Shown here: piece after piece, positions 7,245 to 22,658 of the stretch
How positions within the stretch are numbered: the first letter of the stretch is position 1
Layout: the number at the start of each line of letters is the position of its first letter
Virus record (IMG/VR): IMGVR_UViG_2061766007_000832
Origin: an uncultured virus (IMG/VR IMGVR_UViG_2061766007_000832)
Lineage: Duplodnaviria > Heunggongvirae > Uroviricota > Caudoviricetes
Strand: one strand, 5' to 3'
DNA: 22,701 bases
Notes under the pieces: generated by a model
Databases searched by the model: none
The model's input: the letters and a program-made list of their open reading frames with translations, nothing else
Told to the model about the DNA's origin: nothing
Position numbers and translations under genes: made by a program

Positions 7245-7571
7245 TTACCTCTTCTTTCTGATAATGTACTTTCCTTTTTTGGTAATCCATGCTTTGCTTT
7301 TCCTATCATAAGAAAGCGTTTCGTGCGCAATGCTGTCACGAAGCTTCGATCCGGAGCTTGTCTTAATGTATCTATCTGTCTCTGAATCAAAGATGTCATA
7401 TGACTCACGGCTTAAAATTTGATTCGATGACGTAATGGCGTTTGATCTTGCCACCGTTTGTTTTCTTTCTTCCGGCTCATCCTTCTGCGCTGGTTGCGCT
7501 TGTTGCTTCTGCATTGCAATAGACTTCCTGTACTCACTCATATATGCTTTACTCTTTGCCATGTCTGTCAT
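7245..7571 (-). CDS. Hypothetical phage protein (108 aa)
   Basis: AGGAGG RBS; follows DUF4417. Confidence 0.7.
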   Translation of the reverse strand: MTDMAKSKAYMSEYRKSIAMQKQQAQPAQKDEPEERKQTVARSNAITSSNQILSRESYDIFDSETDRYIKTSSGSKLRDSIAHETLSYDRKSKAWITKKGKYIIRKKR

Positions 7572-8196
7572 ACCTCCTATGCTGGAACGTTTCTATTGGC
7601 ACTATGTTTCCTTCGCACTCGCTTGGAATGGATCCGTAGAACAGAATTGTCTCCGGCTCCAATACTTCAAGCATCTTGTCATACCCACGCATGAACAATA
7701 CCTTGTCCTCTTTGCGTTTCATCATGCCGACACTGCTGATCGCAACTGTTGAACGATACGGTTCTCCGTCAAAGCACCAGCGATAACTGTTCTCGTCTGT
7801 CCAGGTCACCGTTGGATATACCCTGCAACCTATTGACTGCATCCATGCACCGAGCAGATGCTTGCGGTAGTGATTCCATATCTGCACCATAAAGGGCCAG
7901 TCAATATAAGGTGAAAAGTCCGGAGACAGTACAGCATTGAACTGTTTCAGCATGTCAGCGTACTTCTCTTTGTTATTCCACAACCGCTCAAAGTGGTAGT
8001 CATGGATAAAAAAATGTACGCCTTTCTCGTTTCGCTTGTTCCAGCTGGACCCTGCTTCATTGAACGGAATGTATTCTGCCGGCACATATGGTTCCGGTTT
8101 AATGAACGGAATCTGAAACTCGCCTTCAACGTATTCAGGAATAAAGTCTACGTTGTTGGCGAACTGTTCCATGGCGTACTGTCTGCGGTCACTCAT
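7549..8196 (-). CDS. DUF4417 domain protein
   Basis: GVHFFIHDYHFERLW, VLSPDFSPYID, WNHYR, WCFDGEP, VAISSVG and ILFYG motifs. Confidence 0.85.
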   Translation of the reverse strand: MSDRRQYAMEQFANNVDFIPEYVEGEFQIPFIKPEPYVPAEYIPFNEAGSSWNKRNEKGVHFFIHDYHFERLWNNKEKYADMLKQFNAVLSPDFSPYIDWPFMVQIWNHYRKHLLGAWMQSIGCRVYPTVTWTDENSYRWCFDGEPYRSTVAISSVGMMKRKEDKVLFMRGYDKMLEVLEPETILFYGSIPSECEGNIVPIETFQHRRYDRHGKE

Positions 8197-9100
8197 TGCG
8201 TTTTAACTCCTCTGCGATTCTTCCTAATACGTCAGCTGCGCACGGTAATGCAATACCGTTTCCCCACATTTTATATTGTGCTGAATCGGAGCCATTTACT
8301 CCGTCACACCACCAGTCTGGGAACCCCTGAAGGCGGGCACACTCGACCGGCAAGAGACGGCGTAATACATATTTGCGTTGTTTTACTTCCATGCATGCTC
8401 CCCCTGTTTTTTCGGGTACATAGTTGCCAGTGGATCCCCGAATTTCTTGAAACGAATGTAATGCTTGTTGCAGTAAGTCAAGCCTTTTAGCGGAGCACCA
8501 CAAATCGAGCAGGTTCCCTTCCTCCTGTGAATTAGATTGTGGCAACTTCTGCATAGTCTCTGAAGATTTTCCGGTGCATTGTTCTGAGGGTTGTGATCGA
8601 TATGATGCACATCCGTCTTTCCTGCTTTCCCGCAAATCTCGCAACAGCCTTTTTCCTTCAATGCTCTTGCATACTTGTGAGTAACAGTCCAACTCGTCCC
8701 TGTTTTCGGTTTGCTTCTGTAATCCGCTTTCAGGCATTCCTTGCTGCAATATACACGTCTGTTGTACCAATTCCAACATTCCAATTCCCCATTGCTGTAC
8801 CGCTTTCTCTCCATAGGTTTCCCACAGTATTTGCAATATCGGATCTCGTGTGGCTGATATTTCATTTGCGTCCTCCTGAACGACATCAGTAAAATCTTTA
8901 TAATCACGATTTTTCAATGCGCTTGATACCCCCCCCTCAGAAATTCGGAGTGGNNNNNNNNNNNNNNNNNNNNNNNNNNNNNNNNNNNNNNNATCTCTCC
9001 TTATCACCGGAAGCATATCGTTGAATGCATCCTGTCCTGTGTAGCTCCCCGGATGGCTGTTCGCACATAAGGCTCCGGTTCTCGTTGGATATACTTTCAT
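8189..9100 (-). CDS. C5-cytosine methyltransferase, distal target-recognition modules plus C-terminal motifs IX-X (the C-terminal part may initiate separately at ATG 8392)
   Basis: RRLLPVECARLQGFPD (motif IX) and QYKMWGNGIALP (motif X); modules TGALCANSHPG and SALKNRDYKD. A 39-N gap at 8954-8992 makes frame continuity uncertain. Confidence 0.75.
   Translation of the reverse strand: MKVYPTRTGALCANSHPGSYTGQDAFNDMLPVIRRDXXXXXXXXXXXXXPLRISEGGVSSALKNRDYKDFTDVVQEDANEISATRDPILQILWETYGEKAVQQWGIGMLELVQQTCILQQGMPESGLQKQTENRDELDCYSQVCKSIEGKRLLRDLRESRKDGCASYRSQPSEQCTGKSSETMQKLPQSNSQEEGNLLDLWCSAKRLDLLQQALHSFQEIRGSTGNYVPEKTGGACMEVKQRKYVLRRLLPVECARLQGFPDWWCDGVNGSDSAQYKMWGNGIALPCAADVLGRIAEELKRNE
8383..8865 (-). 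CDS. HNH endonuclease nested in the MTase reading frame
   Basis: CAGGAGG RBS then ATG 8865; CEICG..DVHHIDHNPQNNAPENLQRLCRSCHNLIH plus extra Cys clusters. Confidence 0.9.
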   Translation of the reverse strand: MKYQPHEIRYCKYCGKPMERKRYSNGELECWNWYNRRVYCSKECLKADYRSKPKTGTSWTVTHKYARALKEKGCCEICGKAGKTDVHHIDHNPQNNAPENLQRLCRSCHNLIHRRKGTCSICGAPLKGLTYCNKHYIRFKKFGDPLATMYPKKQGEHAWK

Positions 9101-9648
9101 AAATCACGTATCCTCTGCCCCCCCCTTGGCCAGCGTACAGTGTCATCCATGCACCATCAGCGGTGTATATCTGTCTGCTCTGTACATCCCACGGTGTCAT
9201 GCAATTCGTTTTTTTCATCGTTACTCCTTATCAGTACTAACGGTACGTTGCCCCCCCCTGTACCCATGTGAGCTTCCATCGTAGGAAATATGTCCAAAGG
9301 CTGGTAACTGTGCCGCCTACTGTGATCTATGACAACTACTTCATAGCAGACGGCGTGGTGGTCAATCGTGTTCAATGTGTACGATGCCCCCCCTCACTCC
9401 ATCCGCAGCCGTTGCAGCCATCGGTGTCGCATCGGTCTATGCCGTTGGCTTGCAGACATATAACCTTCTTTTCTTCAAGTATCAATGCTGCATCGCCCCC
9501 CCACCATAGTGATAACCAAGTGTCAGCGTTGCGCTTTTATCGTCCTCTGTGTATTCAGTGCAATTCGCCGTCTTTGGTCTGAAACAGGCAACAGGAATTA
9601 CCACATAATTCCTTGAGTCATTGCTCAATGTATGGCACACCCCCCCCC
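8929..9648 (-). repeat. Six poly-G tracts (G9, G7, G7, G8, G8, G8)
   Basis: Plus-strand C runs at 9640-9648, 9496-9502, 9387-9393, 9251-9258, 9118-9125 and 8929-8936. Confidence 0.95.
8937..9218 (-). CDS. MTase target-recognition module as a separate ORF (3' end uncertain because of the gap)
   Basis: AAGGAG RBS; MTPWDVQSRQIY...WMTLYAGQGGGRGYV. Confidence 0.6.
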   Translation of the reverse strand: MKKTNCMTPWDVQSRQIYTADGAWMTLYAGQGGGRGYVIYESISNENRSLMCEQPSGELHRTGCIQRYASGDKERXXXXXXXXXXXXXXTPNF

Positions 9649-9722
9649 ACCGGATTTGAATAGTTCAGCGGTGAAGTGATTGAATCTCCACGGAAGCAAG
9701 TTGGTTTTACTCTGTCATCCAT
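9157..9722 (-). CDS. MTase target-recognition array (4 modules), frameshifted at three poly-G tracts; 188 aa if all tracts are G8
   Basis: Hand translation: ITSPLNYSNP-[G9]-CHTL; SATLTLGYHYG-[G7]-DAALIL; CLQANGIDR..GWSE-[G7]-SYTLNTIDHHAV; FPTMEAHMGT-[G8]-NVPLV. As given, it stops after 34 aa at 9618. Confidence 0.7.
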
Positions 9723-10435
9723 CTGAACCAACCACTTCCATCAGGGCATCCTGCAACATACTTGGCAGCGTTTTCCCTCGCTTTTCTGCTCTCCGCAGGA
9801 TTCCAGCACACGCTTTCTGACTTAAAGAGTATTTCTCCGGCACGTTCGCTTGCAAAATCTGCGATAAGGTAGATTCTCTTACGACGCTGGGGCACTCCCC
9901 AGTATTGAGCATCGTAGAGTCTCCAGGCAATGCTGAAACCGTTTCCCACAATGGTTCCTGAGTGAGACCACCTGCCATGTGGAGGTTTAGGTACAAGAAT
10001 GTCGGATCCTGCTGCTTCACAGAAAGCTTGCAGGACTGCCCTGAAGTCTTCCCCTTTGTTTGAGCTGAATGCTCCTGGGACGTTTTCCCAGACAGCAAAT
10101 CGAGGATACTTATTTGCTGATACCCCTCGCATTTCTCTGATAATTCTAATTGCTTCAAAGAACAAACTGCTCCTTTCTCCGTCATGTAGTCCCGCCTGTT
10201 TCCCAGCGACTGAAAGGTCCTGACATGGGCTGCCGAATGTGATGATGTCAACAGGTTCAATGTCGGCACCGTTTATATCTGTCACGCTTCCAAGATGTTT
10301 CATGTTCGGGAAGCGTTGCGTTGTTACAGCTATTGGAAATGGTTCAATCTCGCTTGCCCATACAGGTTCGATTCCATACATGGCACCGGCAAGAGGAAAA
10401 CCACCGGATCCATCGAAGAGACTTCCGAGTTTCAT
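9707..10435 (-). CDS. C5-cytosine DNA methyltransferase, catalytic N-terminal polypeptide (motifs I-VIII)
   Basis: LFDGSGG, ASEIE, FGSPCQDLS, WENVPG and GVPQRRKRIY motifs; ends before the TRD and motifs IX-X. Confidence 0.95.
   Translation of the reverse strand: MKLGSLFDGSGGFPLAGAMYGIEPVWASEIEPFPIAVTTQRFPNMKHLGSVTDINGADIEPVDIITFGSPCQDLSVAGKQAGLHDGERSSLFFEAIRIIREMRGVSANKYPRFAVWENVPGAFSSNKGEDFRAVLQAFCEAAGSDILVPKPPHGRWSHSGTIVGNGFSIAWRLYDAQYWGVPQRRKRIYLIADFASERAGEILFKSESVCWNPAESRKARENAAKYVAGCPDGSGWFRWMTE
9715..10269 (-). CDS. Overlapping-frame MTase accessory polypeptide, M.EcoHK31I-beta-like (start uncertain)
   Basis: Alternative frame inside the MTase gene ending ESTLSQILQANVPEKYSLSQKACAGILRRAEKRGKTLP, resembling the EcoHK31I beta subunit. 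Confidence 0.7.
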   Translation of the reverse strand: MPTLNLLTSSHSAAHVRTFQSLGNRRDYMTEKGAVCSLKQLELSEKCEGYQQISILDLLSGKTSQEHSAQTKGKTSGQSCKLSVKQQDPTFLYLNLHMAGGLTQEPLWETVSALPGDSTMLNTGECPSVVRESTLSQILQANVPEKYSLSQKACAGILRRAEKRGKTLPSMLQDALMEVVGSDG

Positions 10436-10659
10436 TGACTCACACTCCCTGTGATCGGATTGAATTTGACGGCTTTACCGCCTGAAGCTTTTGCTACCTT
10501 TTCAGCTTTCCGAAGATCGGGAATGCGCAAGGCATCGTATTTGTTTTCGGACAGTCTGCACATTCCCGTATCCTCGTACGCAACGGATATCAGATAGACA
10601 TTCCCGTATTGGATGATGTACGTATCAAAGTCTTCTACTTTCATTTGCGGTTGTGTCAC
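10432..10659 (-). CDS. Hypothetical phage protein (~75 aa)
   Basis: ATGA-coupled to the MTase; KYDA...AEKVA...FNP pattern. Confidence 0.7.
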   Translation of the reverse strand: MTQPQMKVEDFDTYIIQYGNVYLISVAYEDTGMCRLSENKYDALRIPDLRKAEKVAKASGGKAVKFNPITGSVSQ

Positions 10660-10673
10660 TCTTTTATGTAGTA
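10657..10673. promoter_or_regulatory. 17-bp operator-like site
   Basis: CACTCTTTTATGTAGTA; matches the TACT-N9-AGTA family. Confidence 0.5.
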
Positions 10674-10689
10674 ATAGTTTTAAAAAAAA

Positions 10690-10857
10690 TTACTTCTTCT
10701 TTTCTTCCCTGATCATTTCGTTCCACTTGTCTCCGGCTTGTTCAAGTGTCTCTCCGGGCATCTGTCGAAAGCACGATGGGCATTGAACCCATACGATGGA
10801 GTCCTCTTCCCATACTTCGGGCTTTGTTCCGCATGTACATTTCATCAACTTACTCAT
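10690..10857 (-). CDS. Lar-like (restriction alleviation) zinc-finger protein
   Basis: LMKCTCG..P...VQCPSC...EQAGDKWN pattern. Confidence 0.6.
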   Translation of the reverse strand: MSKLMKCTCGTKPEVWEEDSIVWVQCPSCFRQMPGETLEQAGDKWNEMIREEKKK

Positions 10858-10880
10858 AGGTTGTTCATTTCCTTCCTTGT

Positions 10881-11063
10881 TCATACGCTCATTATCCTTA
10901 CGACTGCGAATATAAGCAGCCCAAACAGTGTGAGCGGAACAATCCAACTGTCAACCCAGTACTCGACGATGTCCCAGCGCTTTGCTTTCTCTTCGCATAT
11001 AGGGCAGACCTGCCGTCCCTCTGGGATGATCCGTCCACAGCATACACAGCGATTGTCATTCAT
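10881..11063 (-). CDS. Small zinc-ribbon protein with C-terminal TM helix (60 aa)
   Basis: CVCCGRIIPEGRQVCPIC; hydrophobic tail; AAAGGAAG RBS. Confidence 0.7.
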   Translation of the reverse strand: MNDNRCVCCGRIIPEGRQVCPICEEKAKRWDIVEYWVDSWIVPLTLFGLLIFAVVRIMSV

Positions 11064-12337: not shown

Positions 12338-12897
12338 TGTTTCACCTCCACACAGTCCATCATACAGTCTTCAGCAAATTGTCTTGCGGTCGGTAGTAAT
12401 TCCACAGCCTTGCAGAAGTCCTCATCCCACTCACCGTATGTCCTCGGTCTCTTCTCGTCACGTATATCCTCCAGCCGACGAACAATATCGTCAGCCAACA
12501 GGGCCATGTTGAACAGCATACGCTTTACCCAAGCTTCATGCTCGACTGCATTCTTTCGCATTTTAAGGGCGTTTTTAGCTCGTTCGGCTTCAGCTGGGCT
12601 GATCTTCGTTTCAAGGTCGAGACCGAGACGGAAGGTATCAGAGAACCACTGCAAGCATTGCTTATACGACATATCCGAGTAATAGTTTCTAACTAAAGAA
12701 ATTACATCGCCAGCTGACTTACATACCCAACACATATATCCACGATTTCCGGAATATAATTTCATGTTATACCCATCGCCGTTATGTAATGGGCATTTAC
12801 ATCTACCATGGCGAATGTCCCATCCAAGAGCCTGTCCAACGTCCAGGGCGGACACAGATTGCTTGATGGTATCTGCGAAAAGATTGTACTTATTCAT
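12331..12897 (-). CDS. CHC2 zinc-finger primase-related protein (no TOPRIM domain)
   Basis: CKCPLHNG...YMCWVC..AGDVISLV. Confidence 0.85.
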   Translation of the reverse strand: MNKYNLFADTIKQSVSALDVGQALGWDIRHGRCKCPLHNGDGYNMKLYSGNRGYMCWVCKSAGDVISLVRNYYSDMSYKQCLQWFSDTFRLGLDLETKISPAEAERAKNALKMRKNAVEHEAWVKRMLFNMALLADDIVRRLEDIRDEKRPRTYGEWDEDFCKAVELLPTARQFAEDCMMDCVEVKQC

Positions 12898-13672
12898 ATA
12901 TCTGTTGCCATCTCATTCCATAGGATACACGATTTAATCGAGCAGCTTTTGCAATACAGCTTACGTTATATCCATATTTTTCAGCAGCAGCTGATGCACT
13001 CGGAAAAACTTCTCCTGTATCAACGCAACGAATTGGGATGCCATGTCCACCATTTCTGTGAGTTCTTTTTTTTAATGCATCAACAATATTCATTCCTTTG
13101 CTTACTCTTGTTTGCACTGTTCCGGGATTCAAACCATATTCTTCTGCCCATTCTGTCATACTTTTTGTTACACCATTGATTGTGAAGAATCTACATCTAC
13201 TTGTATTATTATGTTGCTTTTTCTCTGTAACCCATCTGCAATTGTTTGGTTCATAATTTCCATCATTATTAATTCGGTCTATGGAAAGACCGTCAGCATA
13301 TCCATTTGCAATTGCCCATCTTGCAAAAGGAACATAGTCTTTCCATTCATCACATACAGTAATTCCTCTTCCGCCATAACGACTATAACATTTATGATTT
13401 GGGTCATTGCATCGTTTAAGCATACCGTGCCATATATAGCGTAATCTTTTGATTCTCACATCTACAGGATACTTTTGTGTTTGGTTTTTTACGCATTCAT
13501 CTCGTAAACATCCGCAACTTCTTGTTGCACCTCTCATAAGATCGAAACCTTTTACTATTTTCTCCTTTCCGCATTTACATTTGCATAACCATAACGTTCT
13601 ATAATTTTTGCTTCCTGCATATTGAATTACGGTAAGTCTTCCGAATTGCTTGCCAATCAGTGAAAGCTTCAA
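12890..13672 (-). CDS. Free-standing HNH homing endonuclease with C-terminal NUMOD1/IENR1-like domain
   Basis: FGRLTV, WLCKCKCG, RSCGC, YGGRGITVCDEW, SIDRINNDGNYEPNNCRW, IRCVDTGEVFPS; probable TTG start at 13672; AT-rich. Confidence 0.9.
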   Translation of the reverse strand: MKLSLIGKQFGRLTVIQYAGSKNYRTLWLCKCKCGKEKIVKGFDLMRGATRSCGCLRDECVKNQTQKYPVDVRIKRLRYIWHGMLKRCNDPNHKCYSRYGGRGITVCDEWKDYVPFARWAIANGYADGLSIDRINNDGNYEPNNCRWVTEKKQHNNTSRCRFFTINGVTKSMTEWAEEYGLNPGTVQTRVSKGMNIVDALKKRTHRNGGHGIPIRCVDTGEVFPSASAAAEKYGYNVSCIAKAARLNRVSYGMRWQQIYE

Positions 13673-13673
13673 A

Positions 13674-15074
13674 TCAAACACCTTCCTCCATTTCAGCACC
13701 AACTTTCCGGTATGTTGTCTTCCGTTTCTTAAATATTCCACAACACATACCAATGTTTTCATCCACAAAATCGTACACTACAGGAATTTCTGTTTTGCTT
13801 TCATGCACACGTCGGATTCTTCCAACGCTTTGTTCTACAATTGCAGGGTCTTTTACAGGGGAAGCCATAAACAAACGAGATAGTCTTGGAATGTCAAGTC
13901 CTTCACGGGCGATTTTATACGATCCGAATAGGTACATTTTTCTGCCGACCCGCATGTCTTCCTGTATTTTCGCTCGTTCAGTCTTTGCCTTCTTGCTCTG
14001 CATTTTCCCATCAATATATCCGACCTTCTCTTGCATATCATCCGGGAGCAGTGCAATGATTTCCTTCAGTTGATCAAGCCTGTCTGACAGAATTACGCAA
14101 CTCTGATCTTTTTCTTCGATGATCTTGCTTGCAATCAACTTGTTTCTTGTTCTGTCTGTGACAATATGCTTTAGCAGTTTTGTGTAATTAATTGTACCGT
14201 CAGGGTTCTGGCACTCATCAGTAATTTCTGTTTCAGTCAGAATCTGACGAATCTTTACCCCTGTTACTCTGCTCTGTACTTCTTCTGGAGGAATCTTATA
14301 TGCCACATTGCCAATTAATGCAAATGTTGCCTTGATCAGGCCGTCAGACCTATAATCTGTTGCAGTTAATCCAATCTTTGATCGAGCTGCAAGATGGTTC
14401 AGCACCTTCTCATACATGGTAAATGAATCATCTGACACGCATACGTTGTGTGCTTCATCAACTATGATTACATCCCAATAATCACGGAACTGTGTAAGCT
14501 CAACCTTGCACATTGTCTGGACAGTAGCGAACGTAACACCTACACCTACATTTATCCGGCCTTCTGTAATTGTACCGAACAGGCTTGGATCGATGAACTC
14601 TCCAGCAACATCCATGCTTTGTTTTATAAGGTCATGCTTGTTACACAACCACAACGTACGTCTCCGGAGTGCTTTTATCAATGCGATACCGCAGCGTGTC
14701 TTGCCGGCACCACACGGGGCCTTCAGTATTCCGTACTTGGCTTCGACCATTCCGTTTACGGCAGCTTGTTGGTAGTCAAACAACTCCATATCCTTATCGC
14801 CGTAATCAATCACCGTATCCTGCCGGAAGTCACAGAAGATTCCGGTGCCTTTCAGCATGGGCATCAGTTCCCTGATCACCCCGAACGGCAGGATCAGTGT
14901 GTTGCCGTTCCACTCATACATCCGGATGGTTCTCGGAGTCTTTCCAACCCAGAATCCCATGCGTACTTTCTTCTCATATACAGGGTTTGGGAAGTCCAGG
15001 TTCTCTTTCGCCCATGATATGATTTCCTTTGTCGGTTCATTTATGTAAATGCGATTCGCAATTGTTGTATTCAT
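13674..15074 (-). CDS. Superfamily 2 (DEAD/DEAH-like) helicase
   Basis: APCGAGKT, IVDEAH, GLTAT, EGLDIP and QSVGRIRR motifs. Confidence 0.95.
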   Translation of the reverse strand: MNTTIANRIYINEPTKEIISWAKENLDFPNPVYEKKVRMGFWVGKTPRTIRMYEWNGNTLILPFGVIRELMPMLKGTGIFCDFRQDTVIDYGDKDMELFDYQQAAVNGMVEAKYGILKAPCGAGKTRCGIALIKALRRRTLWLCNKHDLIKQSMDVAGEFIDPSLFGTITEGRINVGVGVTFATVQTMCKVELTQFRDYWDVIIVDEAHNVCVSDDSFTMYEKVLNHLAARSKIGLTATDYRSDGLIKATFALIGNVAYKIPPEEVQSRVTGVKIRQILTETEITDECQNPDGTINYTKLLKHIVTDRTRNKLIASKIIEEKDQSCVILSDRLDQLKEIIALLPDDMQEKVGYIDGKMQSKKAKTERAKIQEDMRVGRKMYLFGSYKIAREGLDIPRLSRLFMASPVKDPAIVEQSVGRIRRVHESKTEIPVVYDFVDENIGMCCGIFKKRKTTYRKVGAEMEEGV

Positions 15075-15752: not shown

Positions 15753-16298
15753 TTAAATGACAGTGTACTTTTCTCCACCAATTGATGATACTTTCCTGTG
15801 TTTTCGCTTGCAATTTGAAATATAACTTGAACTTCTCCCAATACTTCTTGATGCTAATGCTTGTGACATGAAGGATGTTTTAGTGCCATTTTCATCAATA
15901 AGAATGCATGGTTTTTGGCAATGGAACAGCCCTGTTTTAAATCCATGTTGAATGTTTTCTTTTAAACTTATCCATTCAAGATTATTTGAATGATTGTTTA
16001 AATAATTACCATCTATATGGTTAACTGTAAGACCATCTCTATACCCATCACACCACGTAATAGCTATAAGTCTCGATACAAGCCAAGTTTTGTGACTGTT
16101 TCCTTTCCACAATTCAACACGAAAATCAGTTCTGCCCTTGCTGCTCTTGTAACATTTTTGTTTCATTATTCTTTGCTTCCACACACGTTTCTCGAATCTT
16201 TTACTGCTTGTTGTTTTACCTTCGCAAGTCCTGATTCGTCCATGTGTTGAAGCTTGATACAAACCTTCATATCCAGGGATGTCTTTCCACTGTTCCAT
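15753..16298 (-). CDS. NUMOD4-HNH homing endonuclease
   Basis: EQWKDIPGYEGLYQAS..GRIR; VNHIDGNYLNNHSNNLEW...ENIQH; AT-rich. Confidence 0.92.
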   Translation of the reverse strand: MEQWKDIPGYEGLYQASTHGRIRTCEGKTTSSKRFEKRVWKQRIMKQKCYKSSKGRTDFRVELWKGNSHKTWLVSRLIAITWCDGYRDGLTVNHIDGNYLNNHSNNLEWISLKENIQHGFKTGLFHCQKPCILIDENGTKTSFMSQALASRSIGRSSSYISNCKRKHRKVSSIGGEKYTVI

Positions 16299-19853: not shown

Positions 19854-20399
19854 TCATTTTGCGTCCGGTCCGATGCGGTTCCGCACCTGATTCCGGCAGT
19901 ATCTTTTATCACGCCACTGTTTACGTTTATGGTCTTCGCTGATCGTAGTCACCGTTTGGTCACGTACTGCCTGGTTTTCCTGATCAAGCTTTTTTCTCCA
20001 TTTGGCATATCTTAAACANNNNNNNNNNNNNNNNNNNNNNNNNNNNNNNNNNNNNNNNNNNNNNNNNNNNNNNNNNNNNNNNNNNNNNNNNNNNNNNNNN
20101 NNNNNNNNNNNNNNNNNNNNNNNNNNNNGTAATAAACCTTAACGGTTGCCAGTGGTTTCAGCCAGCGCAATCGGTCACCGTTCACACGATTCCGGGCAGC
20201 GAGNNNNNNNNNNCCACTGTTTCCGCTTGTGGTCTTCGCTGATCGTGGTTACGGTTTTATCACGTACCGCCTGGTTTTCCTGATCAAGCTTTTTTCTCCA
20301 TTTGGCATATCTTAAACAAGTACTGTGACATGTGTCGGTTCGTTCAGAACACACCCTCGTGCATGGGCAATCCTTTCTCATTTTCCCATTAAACGACAT
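19854..20399 (-). CDS. Small Cys-rich phage protein (~81 aa), split by an assembly duplication
   Basis: MSFNGKMRKDCPCTRVC...CHSTC...KRKQW; the true C-terminus RDKRYCRNQVRNRIGPDAK* is in the duplicate copy ending at 19854. Confidence 0.65.
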
Positions 20400-21603: not shown

Positions 21604-21888
21604 TCCTGCTCACCGTCCATTCGCCTACCATCAGCACAGAAGAATGTTTCTTCCTTTGGTCTTGGTGATTCGTTTTTNNNNNNNNNNACACCGGATGATC
21701 TCGTTATCTCTGTCCGCATATCCTTTTTCATACTGTTCTCTGTCATATGCCAATGCTTTCAACAGTTCAGCCTTATTGACATTTACACCAACCTTTTGAA
21801 CAGCTTTTATGATTTCCTTGCCCATATGTATTTCACTTGTTATTCGCATCTGGCTTGCAATTAGTTCAACCGGACTTTCATAGCACAC
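21600..21888 (-). CDS. Hypothetical phage protein spanning a gap
   Basis: ...ELLKALAYDREQYEKGY...EIIRC [gap 21678-21687], resuming in another frame as ...FFCADGRRMDGEQE*. Confidence 0.65.
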
Positions 21889-22241: not shown

Positions 22242-22658
22242 GTCCGTGTAACCATGTCCTGTGGACGGCGATACGTAACGGTTGCATGGTTGACAGTCAT
22301 TTTTCCATGTTCATATCCTGCCATGTTTTTGCCGTCCTGTTCGCTAATGATCGGTCGTGGCTGTTCCGGAAAGTTCTTCTTGTACTCTGCCATAAGCATT
22401 TCCACCCGGCGCTCATTGGTGAGGTATGGTGCATTGAGGGTCAGATACGTGATGGATTCCTCAAAGGTGTCTGTCTTCTCGCCGATCAGTTTGTAGATTC
22501 CATCGGCGACGTTCATGTAGTTCGTCCAGAAAGGGTTGTTCGGATNNNNNNNNNNACGGATTCTCCATATACCCACATTCAGCCATCGCATCGTGCAGTT
22601 TCAGCATTTCCCTGCAAGCATCTACGTCACGCAGTAATGCGTCTCTAATGTTCTGCAT
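22238..22658 (-). CDS. Hypothetical phage protein spanning a gap (~135 aa)
   Basis: AAGGAG RBS; MQNIRD...MENP joins PNNPFW... if the CGGAT flanking the 22546-22555 gap is an overlap. Confidence 0.65.

Follow-up and report, generated by a model that had tools for sequence, protein, structure and literature searches.

The window analysed here, a stretch of 22,701 nucleotides (22.7 kb) from an uncultured virus of the Caudoviricetes (IMG/VR record IMGVR_UViG_2061766007_000832), carries on its minus strand, between positions 10435 and 8189, the parts of a C5 cytosine methyltransferase distributed over overlapping open reading frames (ORFs) in all three frames. Is such a gene meant to work in pieces, is it switched, or is it broken? 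A preliminary description of the locus had read the pieces as separate polypeptides, with target recognition domains (TRDs) that may be supplied in trans as exchangeable subunits. The comparisons reported below make it probable that the locus encodes an anti-restriction, multi-TRD C5 methyltransferase of a rumen phage, composed of overlapping cistrons and of recognition modules that are phase-variable.

A scan of viral contigs yielded 546 related stretches, the best 80 of which, 60-76% identical to the catalytic cistron (alpha), were used. The motif VIII pattern was matched in 78 sequences, which form the base for the break counts and comprise 59 uninterrupted genes with motif IX in frame, 16 broken genes and three that were not judgeable. 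Contigs of four public runs, the probable source run and those of three other samples, were compared with positions 8993-10500. Hereafter, WIN stands for the window sequence, L followed by a number for related loci, and X3, X5 and X6 for other samples.

Catalytic cistron and embedded gene

The catalytic part of the locus and the ORF embedded in it have the following features:
10435-9707, minus strand: alpha cistron, C5 methyltransferase motifs I-VIII, 242 amino acids, stop TAA at 9709-9707
10420-10397, minus strand: motif I, in alpha
10234-10211, minus strand: motif IV (PCQ), in alpha
10087-10073, minus strand: motif VI (ENV), in alpha
9889-9875, minus strand: motif VIII (QxRxR), in alpha
10185-9715, minus strand: embedded +1-frame ORF, 156 amino acids from ATG 10185 (frame open from 10272), wholly within alpha
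9742-9873, minus strand: conserved helical core of the +1 ORF, resembling the post-motif-VIII segment 'LxxIL..V.EKYxLS'
9722, minus strand: start of the module array in the third frame, ATG 9722-9720, overlapping the +1 ORF stop (GATGGATGA)

Alpha matched the Pfam family DNA_methylase (PF00145) with an E-value of 7.6e-35 over profile positions 1-132 of 324 only, which confirmed the catalytic ORF with motifs I-VIII ending at 9707. Motifs I, IV, VI, VIII, IX and X of C5 cytosine methyltransferases were all located, spread over two ORFs. The alpha stop lies 65-74 codons past motif VIII in 8 of the 78 sequences (WIN, L003-L006, L017, L024 and L026), and the start of the C-terminal cistron is conserved in 4/4 lineages that have its first module; motifs I-VIII and IX-X are hence found on separately initiated, conserved ORFs, as in enzymes of the M.AquI type. 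In WIN and L003-L006 only a few codons separate the alpha stop from the +1 stop, and an ATG in the third frame lies within ~15 nucleotides (nt) of them, in L004 as an ATGA overlap and in L005 as TGAATG, a pattern expected of coupled cistrons. The third-frame ATG at 9722 that had been proposed to open the TRD array is indeed present, overlapping the stop of the +1 ORF.

The preliminary description had named conservation of the stops and restarts in homologues as a check, and single, uninterrupted ORFs in close homologues, with breaks unique to this sequence, as the sign of a decaying pseudogene. The breaks recur (alpha stop in 8/78, the nearest relatives being L003-L006) and, since the cistron borders are conserved in relatives, this sign was not found. 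Sequence comparison thus supports the multi-polypeptide layout as a feature of the lineage and no one-off decay. In several relatives, tracts of seven to nine G (G7-G9; the number gives the length of the run) lie within the alpha/+1 overlap itself (L005 4480, L009/L010 4467, L013 2679, L024 3728, L052 4482, L025 4427 and L080 4447), where a change of length would affect both overlapping proteins together.

The second-frame ORF noted earlier as ending at 9715 inside the catalytic ORF was also found, and it is under purifying selection. The +1 frame is open in 78/78 relatives, and its characteristic motif occurs 30-31 codons past motif VIII in 78/80 sequences and never in the main frame. Codon-position entropy over 69 unique sequences showed variation at main-frame position 3 through motif VIII, low variation at all three positions in main-frame codons 10-27, and variation at main-frame position 1, which is position 3 of the +1 frame, in codons 28-57; over codons 28-57, the amino-acid entropy was 1.3-2.9 for the main frame but ~0.1-0.2 for the +1 frame. 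Between 9792 and 9844, contigs of other samples differ from the window by 12 substitutions, of which nine are synonymous in the +1 frame and one in the main frame, and one is a main-frame stop. An ATG lies nine codons before 'WENV' in 41/56 unique sequences, with a site resembling a Shine-Dalgarno (SD) sequence at 44/49 unique starts. From these patterns of substitution, the +1 ORF is a real gene. A programmed frameshift from alpha into the +1 frame was considered and rejected, as codons 10-27 are conserved in both frames, which sequential reading would not require.

The gene is widespread. When its C-terminal peptide was compared with phage records by tblastn, 131 records matched, and in 4/4 annotated methyltransferase coding sequences that were checked (two gut phages, Pseudomonas phage D14E and Streptococcus phage Javan422) the match lay one base out of the annotated frame, in a +1 frame open over 130-152 codons. 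P1-type plasmids have it as well, in the Dmt-like gene (531 plasmid records matched, one of which was inspected). None of the inspected records has it annotated. A HMMER search returned 3354 representative homologues of the +1 protein, 984 of them at E<=1e-10, and the best 120 homologues of the ORF came from ENA, Logan and JGI metagenomes. In homologues the region of ~130 residues is N-terminal and either makes up the protein by itself or precedes recognition modules and motifs IX-X, L017 being a clean two-ORF example of the latter. No family of Pfam or NCBIfam spans the +1 region; a cluster look-up and a homologue search gave no functional name, at most 'hypothetical protein', and a profile of the protein had no match among PDB sequences at E<=10. 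In an AlphaFold2 (AF2) model, residues ~1-105 reached a predicted local distance difference test score (pLDDT) of 51-62, and helices were placed at 107-153, with pLDDT 93-96 over residues 121-150; the confident part consists of three helices, and two thirds of the model are of low confidence. The core is like the segment that follows motif VIII in single-frame enzymes, for instance 'TRLVDILEKDVDERYYLSEEK' in the Staphylococcus phage enzyme.

Several other records of this ORF deserve mention. It lies at 1219-1674 in L083, 1255-1644 in L084 and 2159-2647 in L086. Two homologues, P0016 (462 amino acids) and P0104 (605 amino acids), have a +1-type N-terminus, modules and motifs IX-X, followed by a motif I-II segment ('MASLFDGIGGFPL..SEIEEF'), which looks like a circular permutation or the fused start of a neighbouring gene; P0104 further contains an in-frame insertion of HNH_3 and a helix-turn-helix (HTH) between motifs IX and X. 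In P0048 (420 amino acids), motifs I-VI continue directly into +1-frame sequence in a single ORF, either as a frameshifted copy or as a fused isoform.

Recognition modules and poly-G tracts

The middle part of the locus contains modules M1 to M5:
9722-9599, minus strand: M1, split by tract G9 at 9640-9648, in frame if G8; assigned by pattern
9535-9471, minus strand: M2 ('..SATLTLGYHYGGG/DAALILEE'), split by tract G7 at 9496-9502, in frame if G8; assigned from the frames and, for the downstream half, from homology in the shifted frame
9458-9340, minus strand: M3 ('CLQANGIDR..GCGWSEGG/ASYTLNTIDHHAV'), split by tract G7 at 9387-9393, in frame if G8; assigned by tblastn
9285-9229, minus strand: M4 ('MGTGGGNVPLVL'), tract G8 at 9251-9258, in frame; assigned by tblastn
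9229-9096, minus strand: M5 cistron, 'CMTPWD..' module, tract G8 at 9118-9125 in frame; assigned by SD and ATG and by tblastn
9229-9224, minus strand: SD AAGGAG of M5, spacer 5 nt, ATG at 9218, followed by an A7 run at 9215-9209

Seven tandem modules, including M6 and M7 of the C-terminal cistron, were found between motifs VIII and IX; M3-M7 have tblastn matches in relatives, and M1 and M2 were assigned by pattern. Several tandem modules are what is expected of a multispecific methyltransferase; core and modules are not joined in one polypeptide, the array being written in three frames. Single-ORF relatives with homologous modules are 605-763 amino acids long. The restarts described at 9218, with its AAGGAG ribosome binding site, and at 9100 are both present. 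An A7 run (9209-9215, minus strand) lies right after ATG 9218; an A6 there would fuse M4 in frame to M5, so the run could be a seventh switch.

Three of the breaks lie inside modules. The sequence 'CLQGNGIDR..GCNGxGWREGxMYTLNTIDRPAV' is continuous in L027, L052 and L058, as shown by tblastn with the ORFs of relatives, and is cut at 9387-9393 in the window. M1 shows the same pattern, cut at its G9 tract, and M2 is cut at G7. The tracts at these points belong to a set of six G7-G9 tracts in the window, all in this gene (8929-9648) and all with G on the coding strand. Overlapping matches to GGGGGGG numbered 11 against a mean of 1.0 in shuffled sequences, and none of 100 shuffles reached 11. By frame arithmetic, the tracts at 9640-9648 (G9), 9496-9502 (G7) and 9387-9393 (G7) would each be in frame at G8, and the remaining three, all G8 (9251-9258, 9118-9125 and 8929-8936), are in frame.

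The tracts vary in length. All four indels listed in contigs of other samples fall in them: the 9640 tract has lost one G in an X3 contig and is in frame at G8, the 9387 tract has gained one in X6 (G8, in frame) and two in X3 (G9), and the 9251 tract has gained one in an X3 contig (G9). X3 contigs also start or end at tracts. All 12 loci with a tract of at least seven G between motifs VIII and IX are broken, and none of the 59 intact genes has such a tract. Of 49 G/C tracts of at least seven in related loci, 42 are located between -600 and +2000 nt relative to motif VIII, and 48 read as G on the coding strand. A DNA comparison of L009 with L013 gave one G6/G9 difference, their modules being otherwise too divergent to inform. 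The exact pattern around the tract at 9387-9393 had no match in metagenome contigs.

A wider sample was obtained for M4 ('MGTGGGN.P') by matching a degenerate pattern to viral and metagenome contigs; of 96 unique matches, 49 satisfied a filter on the flanking peptides and 47 were dropped. Copies with a tract of at least seven G were in frame in 13 cases and out of frame in 15 (at lengths including G7, G9 and G10), against 19 and 2 for copies with interrupted runs of five or six G, and the flanking peptides were conserved on both sides in all 49. Frequent out-of-frame copies with intact flanks are expected of a contingency tract and not of decay or consensus error. Two features of a contingency locus were found here: tracts inside the reading frame are enriched over chance, and tract length differs among close relatives, in-frame and out-of-frame states both being common. 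The breaks at 9640-9648, 9496-9502 and 9387-9393 are not borders between subunits: the modules that they cut are continuous in single-ORF relatives, and the tracts in which they lie are polymorphic in length. Part of the apparent 'atomisation' of the gene is therefore the OFF state of switches. Substitutions follow the frames assigned to the modules: in M1, the frame read downstream of the G9 tract is the only one in which the substitution at 9632 is synonymous, and the frame read upstream of it the only one for that at 9705, and those found in M3 in other samples lead to residues that occur in relatives.

Errors of sequencing or assembly at homopolymers, behind which the true gene would consist of fewer and longer ORFs, could be suspected because all within-module breaks are at homopolymers and because runs of N mark the window as a draft. 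We consider this explanation extremely unlikely. The window and an independent assembly of what are probably its source runs are identical at every base from 8993 to 10500; the borders that involve no tract (the alpha stop, 9722 and 9100) are conserved in independent contigs; and of the M4 copies with at least seven G, which stem from many studies, 15 of 28 are out of frame, compared with 2 of 21 copies whose run is interrupted. Consensus error rates of short-read assemblies are far below 15/28.

Programmed slippage, in which the tracts keep a fixed length and slipping of RNA polymerase or the ribosome at a set rate gives a fixed ratio of full-length to truncated product from one genotype, would agree with several observations. 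A run of G7 has the form of a slippery heptamer, the two G7 tracts of the window would be brought into frame by the equivalent of a -1 shift, and 7/8 G7 copies of M4 are, like these two, one G short of the frame; the X5 contig moreover has the same tract lengths at 5% divergence. However, the lengths vary among samples and contigs (G7, G8, G9 and G10), and the G9 tract needs the opposite shift, so that we hold programmed slippage to be decidedly unlikely.

Blocks of modules are also gained and lost. In contigs of other samples, 9100 directly adjoins 9347, 9362 or 9715, 9212 adjoins 9342, and one variant is without any middle modules. The direct joints indicate that 9100 is a constant border and that M1-M5 come and go as cassette blocks. 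Together with the conserved restarts, such cassette-like joints are what one would expect if every piece, including each middle TRD fragment, were a free-standing exchangeable subunit docking in trans as the designed working state, and natural two-chain C5 methyltransferases (M.AquI and M.EcoHK31I) and fragment complementation are described in PMC3404938 and PMC2836561. Yet three breaks lie inside modules that are continuous in relatives and leave half-modules of 14-25 residues, the 'CMTPWD' module (M5, ATG 9218) has its own start in only 2/8 lineages (WIN and L006), forming part of a longer ORF in the other six, and a TRD is not known to work unless it is covalently joined to motif VIII or IX. 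In this strict form, the free-subunit explanation appears unlikely.

C-terminal cistron and overprinted HNH gene

The last part of the locus contains:
9100-8189, minus strand: C-terminal cistron, 303 codons, stop-free, with motifs IX-X (PF00145, E-value 4.3e-10)
9100-9002, minus strand: M6, in the C-terminal cistron
8954-8992: run of 39 N in the C-terminal cistron, hiding 13 codons
8935-8879, minus strand: M7, in the C-terminal cistron, with tract G8 (8929-8936) in frame
Between M7 and motif IX, minus strand: linker of the C-terminal cistron, read through the other frame of the HNH gene
8865-8383, minus strand: HNH endonuclease gene, 160 amino acids, SD AGGAGG at 8877-8872, in another frame of the C-terminal cistron
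8362-8309, minus strand: motif IX, in the C-terminal cistron
8263-8243, minus strand: motif X, in the C-terminal cistron

The module 'M(K/E/R)xVYP..TGxLCA', which begins at ATG 9100, has a Met at its head and a stop 3-14 codons upstream in 4/4 lineages that carry it (WIN, L003, L005 and L052). M6 is 82-89% identical to its counterparts in L003 and L005, and in the M6 region between 9026 and 9068, other samples differ from the window by seven substitutions; five leave the peptide of the assigned frame unchanged, and two would be stops in the other frame. Motifs IX-X had been described as a piece of their own with an ATG at 8392. This ATG is present and sits 7 nt ahead of the HNH stop; as the motif IX-X frame is stop-free from 9100 to 8189, motifs IX-X need not be a separate piece. 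ATG 8392 could still be a further restart.

The HNH ORF, absent from the preliminary description, matched Pfam HNH (PF01844, 1.9e-5) and phrog_1271 (1.1e-16) and has the HNH catalytic motif. Across it, the methyltransferase frame contains no stop, against a mean of 12.35 after permutation of synonymous codons, and none of 2000 permutations was stop-free. The same layout was found in Staphylococcus phage CUB-EPI_14 (L085), whose annotated methyltransferase of 601 amino acids reads through the other frame of an HNH gene located at 2462-2953; window and phage are 50.7% identical in the HNH frame and 33.6% in the methyltransferase frame. A Rfam scan of 7500-11000 at E<=1 gave no match, so that nothing there points to a group I or group II intron near the HNH gene; nor is the gene an intein, since its frame is not that of the host ORF. 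Free-standing homing endonuclease genes can split or invade phage genes. The HNH gene of the window resembles them in having its own SD just upstream of the highly conserved motif IX, and differs from them in that the host frame stays open through it, with no intron found in the region scanned.

The number of frame breaks within 1.5 kb, the existence of broken relatives without tracts (L006, L016 and L074) and the unusual start of the +1 ORF might be taken as signs of a decaying pseudogene, in which a disused recognition part gathers frameshifts. Decay would not explain why the breaks occur only at tracts or at module borders bearing an ATG, why every listed indel is within a tract, why the module peptides are 82-89% identical to those of L003 and L005 in their own frames, or why substitutions are mostly synonymous in the assigned frames, some of them being stops in other frames. 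The methyltransferase frame is, in addition, stop-free through the HNH gene (0/2000 permutations), and the other long genes of the window are intact. A pseudogene is accordingly judged very unlikely.

These other long ORFs are all on the minus strand, and the window has the look of a phage replication module, with PHROGs matches to a primase/helicase, a helicase, an exonuclease, a DUF4417 nuclease and several HNH endonucleases; the primase/helicase (637 amino acids), the helicase (466 amino acids) and the exonuclease are intact. An HNH endonuclease ORF of 292 amino acids (12890-13768, minus strand) overlaps the 3' end of the helicase gene (13674-15074, minus strand) by 95 nt, and a further HNH gene lies nearby at 15753-16298 (minus strand), so the module seems to be heavily colonised by HNH genes. 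Runs of N occur at 8954-8992 (39), 20019-20128 (110), 20204-20213, 21678-21687 and 22546-22555 (10 each). The closest annotated relatives of the window are gut phages of the 'Ca. Heliusvirales', and the public runs that contain the stretch are bovine and other gut metagenomes.

Proposed enzyme and its relation to known systems

In the mechanism that we favour, the gene would be laid out as overlapping, probably translationally coupled cistrons instead of one ORF. The first, alpha, would provide the catalytic motifs I-VIII, and the second, the small +1-frame protein, would supply the conserved post-motif-VIII segment, which is missing from the main frame. M1-M5 would be carried by one or two cistrons in the middle, and the last would encode a constant C-terminal chain with M6-M7 and motifs IX-X, on whose linker the homing-type HNH gene is overprinted. 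We infer that these pieces are translated, and that alpha, the +1 product and the C-terminal chain could assemble into one enzyme similar to M.AquI or M.EcoHK31I that uses M6-M7. Six modules encode a Gly-Gly-Gly loop as a run of seven to nine G, and slippage would change its length and bring the module in or out of frame; in the present state three tracts would be OFF (G9, G7 and G7, with G8 needed) and three ON. The middle modules would add specificities whenever their tracts are in frame. As the preliminary description had supposed, one poly-G switch could then go OFF without loss of the enzyme, since the restarts at 9218 and 9100 would shield the downstream parts, and above all the essential motifs IX-X, from frameshifts upstream.

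Some observations weigh against this mechanism. The X5 contig, 5% diverged, has OFF lengths identical to those of the window (G9, G7 and G7), which fast random switching would not predict. The excess of out-of-frame G7 copies fits a bias towards contraction or programmed -1 slippage. Tract lengths were taken from assembled contigs and compared between samples, and variation within one population was not seen directly. The +1 ORF of the window is without the usual ATG and SD, its start being 23 codons farther upstream with no clear SD, and a further break could be hidden in the 39-N run at 8954-8992. Finally, the middle cistrons have no known route for docking onto the core, and their polypeptides may act in trans or may be useful only after recombination or fusion.

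A broader form of the subunit idea is a combinatorial enzyme, in which a constant core (alpha, the +1 product and the IX-X chain) would take free-standing recognition polypeptides in trans, each gated by poly-G and exchangeable as a cassette between phages. We regard this possibility as rather doubtful. The original proposal of exchangeable TRD subunits is thus supported in part only: the multi-polypeptide layout and the conserved restarts have stood, and subunit borders at the three poly-G breaks within modules and a separate IX-X piece have not.

Phage methyltransferases are a main counter to restriction-modification. M.SPRI, M.Phi3TI and M.Rho11sI of Bacillus phages are multispecific single-polypeptide C5 methyltransferases that are not known to have repeat tracts. 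The gene described here is like them in being phage-borne, in combining one catalytic core with tandem modules between motifs VIII and IX, and in its presumed anti-restriction role, and it is unlike them in its overlapping cistrons and in the G7-G9 tracts of six of its modules. In bacterial phasevarions, Type III mod and Type I hsdS methyltransferases are phase-variable, and receptor-binding genes of Campylobacter phages contain poly-G tracts. By analogy with both, a simple-sequence tract within an ORF may here allow reversible ON/OFF switching and give a mixed population; unlike in those systems, each predicted switch would sit in one recognition module of a phage C5 enzyme, with as many as six in the gene, and the output would be combinatorial specificity instead of the on or off state of one gene.

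The closest parallels to the layout are two split enzymes. M.AquI is described, in PMC3404938, as consisting of an alpha chain with motifs I-VIII together with some of the variable region, and a beta chain with the rest and motifs IX-X. The window gene likewise has its catalytic and IX-X parts on separate polypeptides split in the variable region, but it is divided into more than two cistrons, has a long overlap out of frame and contains many modules as well as tracts, and its activity is predicted only. For M.EcoHK31I, PMC2836561 and PMC3404938 place the beta chain wholly in another frame inside the alpha gene, and it is said to carry motif IX (PMC2836561). The small second protein of the window is similarly encoded wholly inside the catalytic gene in another frame (10185-9715 within 10435-9707), whereas it carries the post-motif-VIII segment, motif IX being located at 8362-8309 in the C-terminal cistron; it was compared with M.EcoHK31I beta by description only, and its fold is confident in the C-terminal part only (AF2). 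Detached fragments of monomeric C5 methyltransferases, as reported in the same two sources (PMC3404938, PMC2836561), complement each other. In the literature searched, no paper was found on poly-G-switched modules in a phage C5 methyltransferase, nor on the embedded gene beyond M.EcoHK31I.

Routine annotation of this large family of phage genes misses the conserved +1-frame gene, even in P1-like elements, and calls the alternative frame of the HNH gene part of the methyltransferase; phase-OFF copies would be labelled pseudogenes. For the phage itself, the slippery tracts probably let a population vary which sequences are protected from host restriction. If the favoured mechanism is true, switching module by module would yield a phage population with mixed methylation patterns, which may act as a hedge between two kinds of restriction enzyme, those that methylation blocks and those for which methylated DNA is the target. 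If the recognition polypeptides were also to combine in trans, one phage genome could give rise to dozens of methylation patterns across the population.

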